Origin: Nitrospirota bacterium
GTDB taxonomy: Bacteria; Nitrospirota; UBA9217
Assembly: GCA_963754875.1 (NCBI GenBank)
Contig: CAVWHO010000020.1
Coordinates: 320,001-384,000, forward strand
Direction of reading: 5' to 3'
Length of the DNA: 64,000 nt
The notes beneath the pieces are model-generated. The model saw nothing but the letters and a program-made list of their open reading frames with translations, made no database searches and had not been told where the DNA came from. The position numbers and the translations under genes were made by a program. The number at the start of each line of letters is the position of its first letter. The first letter of the stretch is position 1. This document shows, piece after piece, positions 53,640 to 60,495 of the stretch.

Positions 53640-54138
53640 ACGTCGTTGCCGGGAGAACCAATCGGGACATCCTGTATTGATTAAGATAGCAATAAACCAG
53701 CTTGCTTTTTCAACATGATAACCATGCCGGCTTCTTTTGAACGCACTGATCCTGTACAACGAGCAATCCGGTCCCTTTTTTGACATTATCTAAAAATACC
53801 CCCCCTTTACTAAATATCTTGCAATAAATAAACGAATATGATGGTAAAGTATCATATCTTTGTGTCATAATGTTTAATTTCCATTATAAACCTCCTGCAT
53901 TGCGCTGGTTTCTTTCTGTTTTATCAAGCATGTAAAATCTATTTGCCGAGTAGTTCTTCGACCACACAGGCCCGTACCAGAGCGTACTGCAGTGGCTCGG
54001 GGGAACGTCGTTCGGGAGCACGGGTTTTCTGAGCCGCGAGATCCAGATGTTTGCTGACTCAGATGCAGATCTGACCGCGCTTCTGAACGAACTGCTTTCC
54101 GGCAGAAGCCGGGAACCTATAGGGTCAGGTCTTTTAAT

Positions 54139-54173: not shown

Positions 54174-55025
54174 ATGACCCGCCCCCTTCGCATAGAATAC
54201 GCCGGAGCCGTCTACCACATCACCTCCCGCGGCAATGAAAAGAAGGCTGTTTTCAAAGACGACCAGGACCGCATCAACTTCCTGAACACGCTCCAGCATG
54301 TCAACAAGCGGTATAACTGGCTCTGTCATGCCTACTGCATGATGGACAATCATTATCACCTTCTGATCGAGACACCTGACGGCAATCTGTCCCTGGGTAT
54401 GCGGCAGTTGAACGGAGTCTATACGCAGCTTTTCAATAAACGTCATCAACGGACGGGCCATCTATTCCAAGGACGATACAAATCAATCCTCATTCAGAAG
54501 GACAGCCATCTTCTCGAAGTATGCAGGTACGTAGTATTAAATCCTGTCCGGGCGCGGATGGTTGAACGACCGGAAGCCTGGAAATGGTCCAGCTACCGTG
54601 CTACAGTGGGAAAGGAATCGCCGGCACCATGCCTGACAACGGACTGGGTCCTTGGGCAATTCAGCCGAAAGAGAACTGCGGCAGAGCAGAAATACCGGCA
54701 ATTCGTCGAATGGGGTATCGGCAAGGAGACTATCTGGAGAGAGGTAAAAGGACAGTCCATCCTGGGTGAAGACGATTTTGTGGAGGGACTCATCTCCCAT
54801 ATCAAGAAACATCAGAACATTCCTGAAATACCGAAGAGTCATCGCTATGTGAACAGACCGTCTCTCGACAAGATATTTCCGAAAAATGTGATCCTGGATA
54901 AGAGAAAACGAGATAAGAAGATCATTGATGCCGTGCAGAAATATGGTTATACTCAGCAGCAGATAGCCGCTCATTTGAGTATGCATTATTCAACGATCAG
55001 CAATCTGGTGAGGGGTAAGGCGTAA
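54174..55025 (+). CDS. REP-associated-type tyrosine (Y1/HUH) transposase with C-terminal HTH
   Basis: YHITSRGN, MDNHYHLL (HUH), GHLFQGRYKS, YVVLNPVRA, WSSY. C-terminal GYTQQQIAAHLSMHYSTIS. Confidence 0.9.
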   Translation: MTRPLRIEYAGAVYHITSRGNEKKAVFKDDQDRINFLNTLQHVNKRYNWLCHAYCMMDNHYHLLIETPDGNLSLGMRQLNGVYTQLFNKRHQRTGHLFQGRYKSILIQKDSHLLEVCRYVVLNPVRARMVERPEAWKWSSYRATVGKESPAPCLTTDWVLGQFSRKRTAAEQKYRQFVEWGIGKETIWREVKGQSILGEDDFVEGLISHIKKHQNIPEIPKSHRYVNRPSLDKIFPKNVILDKRKRDKKIIDAVQKYGYTQQQIAAHLSMHYSTISNLVRGKA

Positions 55026-55193: not shown

Positions 55194-55790
55194 ATGTCAG
55201 AAAAGAATCCGCATGTCATTGTCATAGCCGGGCCGAACGGGGCCGGAAAATCGACGACAGCGCCGATGCTTCTCAAGGGGACGCTGGGTGTGACGGAGTT
55301 CGTGAATGCCGACGTCATCGCTCAGGGGCTCTCCGCGTTCCAGCCGGAGAGCGCGGCGTTCCATGCAGGCCGGGTCATGCTGGAGCGGCTGCACTTCCTT
55401 GCGAATGAGCGCGTGGATTTCGCATTTGAGACTACGCTGGCGAGCAGATCCTTTGCGCCCTGGATTGCAAAACTGAAGCAAAGCGGGTATACTTTCCACC
55501 TGGTGTTCCTGTGGCTTCCGAGCGCTGATTTTGCCGTTGCCCGCGTGGCCGAGCGGGTCCGCATGGGCGGGCATGATGTGTCTGAGGAAACCATTCGGAG
55601 GCGGTATAATAAGGGTATCGAGAACTTCTTCCGGCTTTACCGGCCGCTGTCGGACACGTGGCGGATGTATAATAATTCGGCCCGTATAGGACCACGGATT
55701 CTGGCTGATGGCGGGACTGGGAGAAGAGAAGCAACTTACGATCCGGCAACCTGGAGCATGATCAGAGGTGAACACAATGAGCGTAGCTGA
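55194..55790 (+). CDS. Zeta-toxin-like P-loop ATPase (COG4185 type)
   Basis: IAGPNGAGKST, FVNADVIA, FAFETTL, RVRMGGHDV, IRRRY. Confidence 0.85.
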   Translation: MSEKNPHVIVIAGPNGAGKSTTAPMLLKGTLGVTEFVNADVIAQGLSAFQPESAAFHAGRVMLERLHFLANERVDFAFETTLASRSFAPWIAKLKQSGYTFHLVFLWLPSADFAVARVAERVRMGGHDVSEETIRRRYNKGIENFFRLYRPLSDTWRMYNNSARIGPRILADGGTGRREATYDPATWSMIRGEHNERS

Positions 55791-56171: not shown

Positions 56172-56225
56172 ATGACATCTTCCGCAATCGTTCAAAAACT
56201 CTGGAACTACTGGGGGGGGCGATAG
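56172..56225 (+). pseudogene. 5' remnant of a type I hsdM gene
   Basis: MTSSAIVQKLWNY(W) versus MTPAAIVSKLWNYC of the intact hsdM at 58927. Shares AAAACTCTGGAACTACTG at DNA level. Confidence 0.75.
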
Positions 56226-56249
56226 GGTCACCCATTTAAAGGGCACCGT

Positions 56250-56625
56250 CAAGCGGAAAAAGCTATCTTGTGGCGAGAAACGAATGTTTCTCGCCGAGCC
56301 TTTTCGTTATCTTCATCATTACCATTGCCGCAGTTTCATTCGGTTTCGGTGTCAGTCTTCACTGCACCAGTCACCCATCGGGATTAAGGTCATTGGTGAA
56401 GCTCTTTATCCATGACCCTTTCCGCCTTATGGCGGACCAGAAAATCTTCGGTTCCATGCCGTGTCCAGGAGTTTGTACAGGTCTCATGGTTGTTAACCAG
56501 CCCCATGATGGCTCGCGGCATGGGCAGTAAAGATGCTGATAACGCTATAAAAGGGTGGGACGGATTACCAATCAGGTCTCGTGGTTTTTTGCCAACCCTA
56601 AGCCAGGTTCACCGTCCCAGCCAGC
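56250..56625 (-). ncRNA. Candidate bridge/seek RNA of the IS110 element
   Basis: Non-coding end with hairpins (56272-56295, 56348-56368, 56421-56436) and segments matching the target and donor junctions (56476-56484, 56413-56419, 56370-56378). Boundaries approximate. Confidence 0.7.
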
Positions 56626-57654
56626 CTATGAACTTTGTGTAAAGATTTTCTCCGGCATAAAGGGAACTCCATCTCGCATGATGTAGTACGCTGCCCGCGC
56701 CAGTTTGTGGGCCAGGGCTTGATGGGCTATCATGGCGTTGGTCTTTTGCATCTTGCGCTGGTAATATGCCCGGGCTTCCGGATAATAGCGCCGGGCGATC
56801 TCGGCAGCTTCGGAAAAGGCCCATGCCAGGTACTTGTTGCCGCTTTTCTTGTTCCCTTTGCCCTTTTTCTTGTCGTTGCTGATCCATTTGGTTGAAACTT
56901 TCCGGCAGTAGGAACAATAGTTGCCGACTTGCGCGAAGCGGCTGATCGGGCCGGTCTCCAGCATGATGGTAAGTCCCAACGTTTTACCCACTCCCGGCAA
57001 CGTGAGGAGATTTTTGTATGGTTCGCGCAGCTCCATTCTGTCTTCTATGATGCTCTCAACCGTTTTGATCTTGAGCGTCAGAAAATCTATGGACTCCTTG
57101 CTGATCTTGCCGGCCAAGGCCAGGTCCTCGTTCTGCTCAAGAAACGGCGCAACGCGATCCGTTTTCAATGCCTTGACGTCGTTCGTCTTGAGCCGGAACC
57201 CGTTGTTACGGCAAATGATGTTCTGCAAACTGATGATGAGCGAGGTCCTGAGCTTTACGAGATGACTTCGTTTGCGTAACAAGTCACGGACTGGTCGATC
57301 TTCTTTCGGGTAAATGTAGCCTTCGGGAAGGATCCCGAGCCGCAGCATCTCGGCCAGCCAGAAGGCATCATGCTGATCGTCTGAATACTTGAGCCCCTTA
57401 TATTGCTTTATCTCCGTAGGGTTTGCGAGATGCACCTTGTATCCTTCTGCCATGAGTGCATCCACCAACCAGTACCAGTTGTACGTGGACTCGATGACGA
57501 TGCCGATAATCGTATCCTTGTATGGTGCGAGAGCGGAAAGAATTTGTTCCGGATCATTGGGAAGCTTCTTTTTGAACACCCGTTTACCAGTTTCATCGAT
57601 GATCGCCAGATAACTGTTGCTTGAATGTAGATCAATTCCTGTGTACAATCTCAT
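56626..57654 (-). CDS. IS110-family DEDD recombinase/transposase
   Basis: GIDLH (D), IESTYNW (E), SDDQHDA (DD), LPGVG and the Tnp20-type C-terminal domain ending HKLARAAY. Confidence 0.95.
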   Translation of the reverse strand: MRLYTGIDLHSSNSYLAIIDETGKRVFKKKLPNDPEQILSALAPYKDTIIGIVIESTYNWYWLVDALMAEGYKVHLANPTEIKQYKGLKYSDDQHDAFWLAEMLRLGILPEGYIYPKEDRPVRDLLRKRSHLVKLRTSLIISLQNIICRNNGFRLKTNDVKALKTDRVAPFLEQNEDLALAGKISKESIDFLTLKIKTVESIIEDRMELREPYKNLLTLPGVGKTLGLTIMLETGPISRFAQVGNYCSYCRKVSTKWISNDKKKGKGNKKSGNKYLAWAFSEAAEIARRYYPEARAYYQRKMQKTNAMIAHQALAHKLARAAYYIMRDGVPFMPEKIFTQSS

Positions 57655-57832
57655 AAAGCACCTCCTGGGATAAGATTGGTCTCTTCTCCCAAGAGCATAT
57701 CAGAGCTTAACCACTCTGGTATGCTCTGGAGGTGCCCTTTATATGGTTATACAGGTCTTTTCTTCTTGATATCGCTTCTTTATGATATGGTGATATGGCG
57801 GTTGGAGCGGTGAGCGCGAATCGTCATCATTC

Positions 57833-58240
57833 CTAGCCCCGCCCGGCCCGGAGGGTTTCCCAGAATTGCCTCGGTGTGATGATGGGGATGTTTTTGTATC
57901 GCTCTAAAACGAGCAGATCCTTGTCGCCGGTTATAAGGTAGTCCGCATGTCCTGCATCGGCAGCGCCGAGAACGGGAAGGTCCTCGTTGTCGCGGCACTG
58001 CACAGCAGTCACCGGCAGCGGTACCGCAAGAATGGAATATTCTCTGAGATACGCCATGATGTCGTCGGCAATGGATGCTGGAAGCGCGATTTTTTGAATC
58101 AGTTTTTTACGAACTTCGGAAAGGATGTGCTCGCTGGTTATGACGGTGTGACCGGAAAGACAGAGTTCAAGAACGTCGGCGCTCAGGCCGCGCGCGGCAA
58201 ATGCCGCGATAATGACGTTCGTGTCCAGAAGGACTTTCAT
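57833..58240 (-). CDS. PIN-domain toxin (VapC-like)
   Basis: VLLDTNVII, CRDNED, ADYLITGDKDLL. Confidence 0.9.
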   Translation of the reverse strand: MKVLLDTNVIIAAFAARGLSADVLELCLSGHTVITSEHILSEVRKKLIQKIALPASIADDIMAYLREYSILAVPLPVTAVQCRDNEDLPVLGAADAGHADYLITGDKDLLVLERYKNIPIITPRQFWETLRAGRG

Positions 58241-58926: not shown

Positions 58927-60495
58927 ATGACACCAGCAGCAATCGTTTCAAAACTCTGGAACTACTGTAACGTCCTCCGGGACGACGGAATGAGCTACGG
59001 CGATTATGTGGAGCAGCTCACGTACCTGCTGTTCCTCAAGATGGCCGACGAGCGCACGAAGCCGCCGTACAACCAGCCGAGCGCCGTGCCCGCGAAGTAC
59101 AACTGGCCGACGCTGCTCAAAAAAGACGGCGACGACCTGTTCGACCACTACCGCCACATGCTCGAAAGCCTGGGCAATGAAAAAGGTCTGCTCGGCCTGA
59201 TCTTCAACAAATCCCAGAACAAGTTTCAGGACCCTTCGAAGCTGCGACGGCTTGTTGTCGATCTGATCGATAAGGAAAACTGGTCGGTCATGAGCGCTGA
59301 TGTGAAAGGGGACGCATACGAGGGCCTCCTGGAGAAGAACGCACAGGATACCAAGTCCGGCGCAGGCCAGTACTTCACTCCCCGTCCTTTGATCCAGGCC
59401 ATGGTCGACGTGATCCAGCCGAAGCCGAAAGAGACCCTCTGCGATCCTGCGTGCGGGACCGGGGGCTTTCTCTTAGCTGCGCACGATTACGTGGTAAAGC
59501 ATAACCCGAACATGAGCGCCGATGAGAAGCGCAAACTCAAAGGCTCGACCTTTAAGGGCTGGGAGCTGGTCCAGAGCATGGCCCGGCTCTGCGCCATGAA
59601 CCTGATGCTCCACAGCATCGGGACCGACAAGGACCTTCCTATCATCGTTTCGGATTCTCTTGCTGCCGACCCGGGAGACAGGTTCGATATCGTACTGACC
59701 AATCCTCCCTTCGGGAAAAAGAGCAGCACCACTATCGTTGCTGAGAACGGCAAGGTATCACGGGAGACCGATATCATCGAGCGCGAGGACTTCTGGGCCA
59801 CGACGTCCAACAAACAGCTCAACTTCATCCAGCATGTAAAGACCCTTTTAAAACAGAATGGCCGCGCGGCGGTTGTCGTGCCGGATAACGTCCTGTTCGA
59901 AGGCGGGGCAGGGGAGACGGTCAGGAGAAAGCTCCTGCACGAGTGCGACGTGCATACCCTCCTGCGCCTGCCTACGGGCCTGTTCTACGCCCAGGGTGTG
60001 AAGGCGAACGTGCTGTTCTTCGACAAAAAGCCGGCAAGCGAAACACCTTGGACAAAGAAGCTCTGGATCTACGACCTCCGCACGAACATGCACTTCACGC
60101 TCAAGACGAGCTCCCTCCAGCGCTCAGATCTCGACGAGTTTGTGAAGAACTACAACCCCGAGAACCGCCATCAGCGTAAGGCTACCTGGAAGACTTCCCC
60201 CTCACCCCAGCCCTCTCCCCGAAGGGGCGAGGGAGTAAAAAATAAGCGCAAAACAAGTGGAGAGGAAGGTAAAAATGAAGGGCGCTGGCGGTCGTATACC
60301 TATGACGAACTCGTAAGCCGCGACAAGGCGAGCCTCGACATCTTCTGGCTCAAGGACGAATCCCTCGAAGCATCCGACAACTTGCCCGATCCCGACGTTA
60401 TCGCCCAGGAGATCGTGGAAGACCTGGAAGCTGCGTTGGAACAGTTTAGGGAGATTGTGGCTGATCTTGGTAGCAATAAGAAAAGTGCCGATTAA
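58927..60495 (+). CDS. hsdM: Type I restriction-modification N6-adenine methyltransferase subunit
   Basis: KLWNYCNVLRDDG, GQYFTPR, DPACGTGGFL, NPPF, VPDNVLF, LRLPTG, SLDIFWLKD. Confidence 0.93.
   Translation: MTPAAIVSKLWNYCNVLRDDGMSYGDYVEQLTYLLFLKMADERTKPPYNQPSAVPAKYNWPTLLKKDGDDLFDHYRHMLESLGNEKGLLGLIFNKSQNKFQDPSKLRRLVVDLIDKENWSVMSADVKGDAYEGLLEKNAQDTKSGAGQYFTPRPLIQAMVDVIQPKPKETLCDPACGTGGFLLAAHDYVVKHNPNMSADEKRKLKGSTFKGWELVQSMARLCAMNLMLHSIGTDKDLPIIVSDSLAADPGDRFDIVLTNPPFGKKSSTTIVAENGKVSRETDIIEREDFWATTSNKQLNFIQHVKTLLKQNGRAAVVVPDNVLFEGGAGETVRRKLLHECDVHTLLRLPTGLFYAQGVKANVLFFDKKPASETPWTKKLWIYDLRTNMHFTLKTSSLQRSDLDEFVKNYNPENRHQRKATWKTSPSPQPSPRRGEGVKNKRKTSGEEGKNEGRWRSYTYDELVSRDKASLDIFWLKDESLEASDNLPDPDVIAQEIVEDLEAALEQFREIVADLGSNKKSAD
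60197..60235 (+). repeat. REP-like palindromic element within the hsdM reading frame
   Basis: CCCCCTCACCCCAGCCCTCTCCCCGAAGGGGCGAGGGAG. Hairpin 60211-60233. Encodes SPSPQPSPRRGEG. Confidence 0.75.

Follow-up and report, generated by a model that had tools for sequence, protein, structure and literature searches.

A predicted three-loop guide RNA in the right end of an IS1111-type IS110 element from a Nitrospirota bacterium

The locus described here raises the question of where, in the non-coding end of an insertion sequence, the guides of a putative bridge RNA lie and what each of them reads. The element occupies 56229..57753 on the minus strand of the window, a 64,000-nucleotide stretch of a Nitrospirota genome (contig CAVWHO010000020.1, positions 320,001 to 384,000). 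An earlier note had flagged the interval 56300..56490 as a bridge RNA with one target loop and one donor loop in an IS621-like order. All features of the element are given below in window positions and lie on the minus strand.

The element, its ends and its relatives

The transposase gene (56626..57654) encodes an intact DEDD transposase/recombinase of 342 amino acids in which PF01548 (E 9e-20) and PF02371 (E 9e-12) both score past the cut-off. Among 11 homologous proteins D8, E55, D93 and D96 are invariant and S259 is kept in at least 90%, and these catalytic residues line up with those of ISCro4 in the ISCro4/IS621 alignment, with the motif SN in place of SG. An N-terminal DEDD RuvC domain followed by a C-terminal Transposase_20 domain, with the D-E-D-D residues and a C-terminal serine, is the make-up of the IS110 family; similarity to the IS621 and ISCro4 proteins themselves is distant (E 5e-10 and 2e-9). 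The earlier proposal of a programmable recombinase of the IS110 family, guided by RNA and with TG as its core, is upheld here.

The genome holds three full copies of the element, 99-100% identical and with different flanks, and their comparison fixed the ends as well as the TG core that stands at both ends of each; both cores of the window copy (57753-57752 and 56230-56229) are counted as part of the element. The target common to the three copies reads AAAGACC-TG-AC(CC), with the left half AAAGACC at 57754..57760 in all three and the right half ACCCTA, placed by the same comparison, at 56223..56228. The non-coding ends measure 97 nt on the left and 395-396 nt on the right, and each carries one arm of a 16-nt subterminal inverted repeat (57731..57746 and 56232..56247, 94% complementary). 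The copies on contigs C15 and C5 agree with each other at all 14 positions at which the window copy differs from them, and two of these positions lie within the 3′ guide of the loop called B below.

In IS1111 elements the subterminal inverted repeats are reported to be 7-17 bp long and set in from the ends (PMC11208160), and in the guide region of their seekRNAs the match to the top strand is reported to lie 5′ of the match to the bottom strand (PMC11187229). The window element has 16-nt subterminal repeats, a short left and a long right end, and its top-strand match 5′ of the bottom-strand one. By end features and guide order, as far as the sequence tells, it is an IS1111-type IS110 element with a predicted RNA-guided recombinase that uses a TG core. 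It resembles the IS1111 seekRNA elements ISEc11, ISPa11, ISKpn4 and ISPst6 as described by Siddiquee et al. 2024 (PMC11187229) in its subterminal repeats, a DEDD transposase of 330-350 aa, a long 3′ non-coding region, the order of the two matches and a junction promoter, the last predicted here. Its nearest homologs are in Nitrospirota MAGs, and the nearest named relative is annotated as ISGsu4-like (48% identity, plasmid matches H7/H8). ISGsu4 is grouped with ISGsu5, ISShfr7 and ISShwo5 in Supplementary Table 1 of Durrant et al. (PMC11208160), and a literature search found no guide RNA study of ISGsu4; the one paper that names it deals, by its listing, with a different topic. In the alignment, plasmid members of this closest named family (L106, L113) show the same loops A and B and donor loop as the window element.

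Across the predicted circle junction, TTGACG (56252-56247) and TATAAC are separated by a gap of 18 nt and resemble -35 and -10 hexamers, and a junction promoter of the form TTGACG-18 nt-TATAAC is predicted from the sequence of the inferred junction. Four RNA runs yielded contigs of relatives only, and no contig spanning the junction stood among the joints listed for them; no sequencing run in the search contained half of the query words. A promoter and terminator scan returned two plus-strand sites against 1.9 expected, and no terminator. The predicted -10 lies in a left-end extension, TATAACC (57745..57751), where homologs usually have ATAATC, shorter by one T. The extra T, at 57751, is present in eight scored records of one cluster. 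This variant has moved, since it is found at different sites in several genomes. The additional base weakens the fit of the left end both to the 5′ donor guide and to the handshake of loop A.

Several features of the surroundings were recorded as well. The genome has five empty AGAYYTGACCC sites, each at a distance of 41-227 bp from a long transposase gene of the Y1 (RAYT-like) type. One such gene stands in the window (54174-55025, plus strand), with an empty target copy at 54132 (minus strand), 42 bp upstream. The C5 copy of the element is itself 14 bp from a Y1 (RAYT-like) gene, and the window and C15 copies have none nearby; a literature search found no paper on a RAYT-flank target motif. 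The same genome carries fragments of related elements, a right end that lacks loop A and the transposase gene (L004, G000:C7:59920-60258) and a left end adjoining a RAYT-like fragment (L005, G000:C18:61243-61395). Directly beside the right junction of the window copy, an hsdM-like 5′ remnant of 13 codons (56172-56212, plus strand), whose sequence resembles the beginning of the complete hsdM gene at 58927, stops in a G run. The flanking genes encode a Zeta/AAA_33-type ATPase (55194-55790, plus strand) and a PIN-domain protein (57833-58240, minus strand), and together with hsdM they look like a small defence-like cluster.

Fold of the right end and layout of its loops

The strings on which the earlier note had built its two loops are all where it placed them. 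AGACC-UG-UA at 56484-56476 equals the junction at 57758-57750, AUGGG-UG-AC at 56378-56370 equals the junction at 56235-56227, and the 7-mer AGGGUCA (56419-56413), the CCATG/CATGG pair and both arms of a second helix (56311-56323/56388-56401) are present. When the 396-nt end was resampled 20,000 times under a first-order Markov model, the 9-mers arose at frequencies of 0.00065 and 0.0036 and never together, and the 7-mer at 0.012. Of the three copies in the genome, only one has the exact 9-mer at 56484-56476; both others differ by C>T at 56480 and by G>A at 56485, the second of which removes one pair of the CCATG/CATGG helix.

The whole right end folds better than its shuffles (z -5.15). A 70-pair model was derived from the window sequence, which favours it over slid controls; across 38 homologs it is paired in 89.5% of cells, with double changes at 40 of the 70 pairs, compared with 84.0% for shuffles (0/500 as high) and 30-43% for slid versions. 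The minimum free energy fold reaches -111.8 kcal/mol, and enforcing the helices of the three-loop model described here gives -102.0 kcal/mol, 9.8 kcal/mol above it, whereas enforcing the helices of the earlier note gives -91.4 kcal/mol, at a cost of 20 kcal/mol. An Rfam scan returned three weak matches, all far under their gathering scores.

Aligned with its homologs, the right end consists of one motif used three times, in loop A, loop B and a donor loop. In each, a short conserved lead (GAACC/GAGCC) precedes the 5′ guide; UGG...CC separates this from the 3′ guide, after which come UG, a dinucleotide and UGG. Loop A (56556..56619), which lies upstream of and outside the interval flagged earlier, is closed by an outer helix (56619-56612/56563-56556) that is 96% paired in homologs with double changes at seven of eight pairs. 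Its 5′ guide (56601-56595) forms six Watson-Crick pairs with the right target and, from 56594, a U-G wobble; an inner hairpin (56594-56582), the 3′ guide AGACC (56579-56575), the core UG (56574-56573) and the predicted handshake bases AU (56572-56571) follow. The stretch 56573-56598 within loop A (repeat D4) is a second copy of the AGACC-UG-UA module of the earlier note and stands 95 nt upstream of it. Loop B (56465..56513), a second target-like loop, is enclosed by the helix 56522-56516/56461-56455 and comprises a 5′ guide (56508-56500), in which four of the first six positions pair with the target here, a hairpin (56499-56487), a 3′ guide (56486-56480), UG (56479-56478) and UA (56477-56476). 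The UA is followed by an 8-nt spacer such as neither loop A nor the donor loop has, and 56 of the 69 clusters have an insert of 8-12 nt after the loop B dinucleotide.

Loop B and the donor loop sit within a large domain (56305..56544). Its closing helices (56544-56538/56311-56305, 56534-56527/56322-56315 and 56526-56523/56329-56326) are 85-89% paired in 38 homologs and are not predicted by RNAalifold in this form. The donor loop is multibranched and runs from 56446 to 56370, with a candidate second donor guide, GAUUUUC (56440..56446), at the place in the motif where loops A and B have their 5′ guides, and with the donor guide GAUGGG, the core UG (56373-56372) and the handshake bases AC (56371-56370) at its other end (56370..56379). 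Between them is a stem-loop (56386..56419) in which AGGGUCA pairs with UGACCUU (56392-56386); it is 82% paired, with double changes at four of seven pairs, and RNAalifold agrees with it. A perfect hairpin 3′ of the guide domain (56272..56295) appears in the minimum free energy fold, and homologs have a similar hairpin. RNAalifold independently finds loop A and the helix enclosing loop B, as well as the GGGUC stem and the hairpin that follows the donor guide, but turns the short helices of loop B into two small hairpins and leaves out the long closing helices.

Covariation of the loops with target and donor

Homologous loci were drawn from related genomes, GTDB contigs, metagenomes and plasmids and gave 159 distinct records, of which the 142 whose right end was 250 nt or longer were aligned. 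A loop-anchor filter passed 123 of the 142 right ends and dropped 19, and clustering at 90% identity yielded 69 clusters; anchor invariance among the 123 scored records is partly circular, since they were picked by a filter on the loop anchors. A separate pattern search matched 11 of the 19 filtered-out right ends, seven of them cleanly on loop B. Covariation was scored with one record per cluster against flanks shuffled 5000 times (n=63 right, n=55 left), with right flanks corrected for tandem-repeat ends (9/127 right ends), and the resulting z values overstate because the clusters are related.

The two guides of loop A follow the target closely. Its 5′ guide scored 4.43 against the right target compared with 3.15 for shuffled flanks (z 12.3, n=63, 0/5000), and its 3′ guide 4.27 against the left target compared with 2.12 (z 15.8, n=55, 0/5000). 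The corresponding scores for loop B were 3.68 versus 3.09 (z 6.6, 0/5000) and 3.16 versus 2.15 (z 8.7, 0/5000). The right target has changed in 21 clusters, and in 17 of these the cluster's own target fits loop A better than the common one, with the same count of 17 for the handshake; for loop B the own target was better in ten, equal in nine and worse in two, and in the 21 clusters alone A, B and the handshake each beat 5000 of 5000 shuffles. Where the left target has changed (19 clusters), the loop A 3′ guide prefers the own target in 19/19 and that of loop B in eight, with five equal and six worse. Set directly against each other, loop A fits better than loop B on the right in 35 of 63 clusters, equally in 25 and less well in three, and on the left in 39 of 55, with 14 equal and two in favour of B. 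By this covariation loop A is the main target loop, the address of the element, and loop B tracks the target more loosely. The segment AGACC-UG-UA of the earlier note keeps its role in part, as the 3′ guide of a target-like loop that follows the target, but its UA does not act as a handshake across the family, matching the left end in 3/55 clusters.

A tree-based test, underpowered with its six well-supported independent pairs, gave no guide at p<0.05, with directions in agreement: same versus opposite direction stood at 2.9 to 0.3 for loop A, 2.3 to 0.2 for loop B and 5 to 0 for the handshake, the right flanks in this test including the tandem end of L136 uncorrected, which seemed to favour loop B. 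A division in which A reads the left flank and B the right was considered and dropped, being clear in L014 only. Inspection by eye found loops A and B in plasmid elements at 33-50% identity (L106-L113, L225) and loop B in relatives as distant as 33% in protein identity (L111, L112, L225). L226, at 31% identity, apparently has one target loop only, and the loops of L223 and L224 (27-32% identity) were not parseable by eye.

The reading of AUGGG-UG as a donor guide was upheld, as AUGG(G/A) follows the right end in 112/117 records (GGG/GGG in 100, GGA/GGA in 12, discordant in 5). The dinucleotide after it equals the next two bases of the target (+2,+3) in 60/63 clusters, with seven different dinucleotides represented (1.95 versus 1.24 shuffled, z 11.2, 0/5000). 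On this evidence the AC of the window copy is a real post-exchange handshake position, as the earlier note had proposed. The dinucleotide of loop A equals the left end in 51/55 clusters and that of loop B in 3/55; loop B's equals the right target in 1/63. The window lineage is inverted in this respect, with a left end that starts TA, so that the AU of loop A mismatches and the UA of loop B matches (7/8 records, one cluster). UA is also the commonest pair in loop B (18/69 clusters). Guides that covary with target and donor are thus found as in bridge RNAs and seekRNAs, the 5′ donor guide by conservation only, and handshake dinucleotides are found for the donor loop and loop A, not for loop B. 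Of the guide segments named in the earlier note, AUGGG-UG-AC and the loop B segment covary in homologs, and AGGGUCA does not.

The order of the guides is that of IS1111 and not, as the earlier note had it, that of IS621, and the 'right donor guide' it had missed was absent from its search because partner guides lie 5′, not 3′, in IS1111 order. Inspection of the homolog alignments found no donor guide 3′ of AUGGG-UG-AC. The candidate on the 5′ side, GAUUUUC, pairs with the left end at +1, +2, +4, +5 and +7 in 87-98% of 55 clusters and almost never at +3, which is conservation and not covariation, since the left end hardly varies. In the window copy it forms only four of seven pairs because of the extra T in the left end, or five of seven if that T bulges. 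Another candidate, GUUAUCA (56543-56537), complements the usual left end but was rejected because it belongs to a helix that shows compensatory changes.

For IS621, the handshake bases are reported to come after the guide bound to the cleaved strand and to pair with the two core-adjacent bases of the other DNA (PMC11208158). If the DNA is read on the opposite strand, the layout here equals that of IS621, and the two bases after each UG would be handshake positions. The junction dinucleotide differs from TG in 8/117 records on the right and 1/100 on the left, a bias of the kind expected if the opposite strand is cut on the 3′ side of the core, given the IS621 cut site as reported (PMC11208158).

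Some right ends are unusual in themselves. Tandem repeats of the last 11-18 nt are found in L031, L051, L069, L131, L136, L139, L150, L182 and L187, with six repeats in L139, and in several of them the repeat unit begins at a TG inside the inverted repeat, which suggests recombination at a second core. In L058-L060, L076-L080, L119, L129, L133, L140 and L142 the right end is 550-612 nt long; in L058 and L076, which were read over their full length, the additional sequence is situated 3′ of the donor loop.

Possible roles of the second target-like loop

The predicted RNA, with its three guide loops, likely guides the recombinase, loop A choosing the target and the donor loop holding the ends of the element. 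Going by IS621 and IS1111 work, the element would form a circle whose junction promoter would drive the transposase gene and the RNA. By the same comparison with known systems, each loop would bind a recombinase dimer, with exchange at TG, and the chemistry would be that of IS621 on the opposite DNA strand. The bases after UG would serve as handshake guides in an insertion-favouring state, the AU of loop A standing for the left end and the AC of the donor loop for the right target. Within this three-loop model we think it reasonably probable that loop B is a working, second and looser target loop. Counting against this reading are the poorer fit of B than of A, the inverted handshake pattern of the window lineage and the refolding of B by RNAalifold.

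What loop B would do is a more speculative matter. With its weaker pairing and no donor-matching handshake, it might be the partner of the donor loop while an integrated element is being copied out, and loop A, a separate hairpin of seekRNA size, might serve insertion. In IS621 every RNA change that raised insertion is reported to have lowered excision, with inverse effects at the handshake (PMC13626964), and in CazIS110-1 a TBL-only RNA and the full bridge RNA are reported to act in different steps (10.1101/2025.10.25.684509); together with B's weaker fit, free dinucleotide and insert, these favour B as a looser target loop that eases excision. However, the IS621 donor loop alone can reportedly drive excision (PMC13626964; 10.64898/2026.08.31.748434), so an excision target loop may be unneeded, and the B dinucleotide, equal to the right target in a single cluster, is by sequence not set for excision either. 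A full division of insertion and excision between loops A and B is doubtful. Equally tentative is the wider proposal that a whole IS1111 clade, ISGsu4-like and reaching from Nitrospirota to Proteobacteria, has a bridge RNA of three loops, two of them target loops that are programmed separately, one for insertion (strong pairing, donor-matching handshake) and the other for excision (looser, no handshake). The direction of recombination would then be built into the RNA, and the extra T of the window lineage would swap which loop has the matching handshake.

Loop B could also be a remnant without a guide function. In an ordinary two-loop IS1111 system of loop A and donor loop, B would stem from an old duplication of A and persist as an arm with a structural or protein-binding function, and its guides would follow the target passively, by conversion from A or by the same rewriting. 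This would suit the lag of B behind A in most clusters, its unconstrained handshake with the insert that follows, the near identity of the A and B 5′ guides in several retargeted clusters (L011, L031, L151: 6/6) and the seemingly single target loop, by eye, of L226. The hairpin loops of A and B differ, however, which would limit any conversion to the guide positions; the right flank of L014 fits B at 5/5 and A at 2/5, the left flank of L160 fits B at 5/5 and A at 3/5, and B is kept across relatives of 33-100% identity. We regard passive duplication as rather unlikely. L014 bears on another reading as well, in which B is a second independent address, with insertion at A- or B-matching sites, or a store of the earlier target while the element is being retargeted: L014 and L057 have loop B in common and differ in loop A, the right flank of L014 follows B, and B often retains the common GAYY/GGG-type guide after A has changed. 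Yet no site was found with both halves following B against A, B exceeds A on the right in only 3/63 clusters, and the multi-copy families (L035, L042-L048, L072; L076-L080) follow A, and such a role is improbable.

The model of the earlier note, an RNA in IS621 order with a target loop of AGACC-UG-UA and AGGGUCA closed by CCAUG/CAUGG and a donor loop closed by 56401-56388/56323-56311, has in its favour that all its matches exist in the window copy, that the 7-mer is uncommon by chance and that AGGGUCA gives a weak signal over the whole set (3.16 versus 3.02, z 2.0, 151/5000). In the 21 retargeted clusters, however, 588/5000 shuffles scored as high; the segment keeps a GGGUC-like sequence after a change of target, with a better fit to the cluster's own target in 0/21 and to the common target in 21/21, and its stem partner covaries with it, so AGGGUCA does not hold as a right target guide. 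The two closing helices fared no better, being 61% paired, a level that 64/500 shuffles reached, and expensive to enforce. This leaves the IS621-order model barely credible, and the three-loop reading is the one we compare with known systems.

In size, loop A (about 65-70 nt) is near the short seekRNAs (82-96 nt), and the guide region as a whole, at about 320 nt, compares with 148-172 nt reported for long seekRNAs (PMC13604230). It departs from the elements of Siddiquee et al. in its second target loop and in readable donor guides and handshake bases, which the text of PMC11187229 available to us does not describe. With the bridge RNA of IS621 and ISCro4, as reported by Durrant 2024 (PMC11208160), Hiraizumi 2024 (PMC11208158) and PMC13626964, it shares a two-nucleotide core, guide-hairpin-guide loops, post-exchange handshake dinucleotides beside the core-pairing guide and a target in a short genomic repeat. 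Unlike that RNA, it lies in the right end, with polarity reversed relative to the transposase gene, a TG core and three loops in place of two. The IS621 type, with one target and one donor loop, simple internal loops and a place in the left end, also differs in its donor loop, which is multibranched here; multiloop donor regions are noted for many IS1111 elements by Durrant (PMC11208160). CazIS110-1 (Sun et al. 2025, 10.1101/2025.10.25.684509) is similar in having a free target-loop RNA beside a full bridge RNA, but there both are reported to come from one target loop by truncation, and here two target loops are separately encoded. A 2026 review gives two loops as typical of bridge RNAs (PMC13604230). 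A text-level literature search, which may miss a loop that is only drawn, found no description of a second or additional target loop in IS110/IS1111 RNAs, and passages of 10.1101/2025.05.14.653916 and 10.1101/2022.05.22.493013 say nothing of one. The three-loop layout is apparently undescribed, and the guide RNA itself is of a known kind, in a mechanism class described in 2024.

A readable guide RNA in an element of this family is thus ordinary by itself, and what is added is a conserved second target loop, which, as far as the literature search extends, goes beyond the described two-loop architecture. The natural retargeting seen in about 20 clusters brings handshake covariation in an IS1111-type element, points to a reversed strand polarity and gives the exact positions to alter, along with a new TG-core scaffold for programmable recombination. 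If loop B has a role of its own, it would bear on how the recombinase chooses between insertion and excision and on why an RNA of the target loop only works for IS1111 elements.
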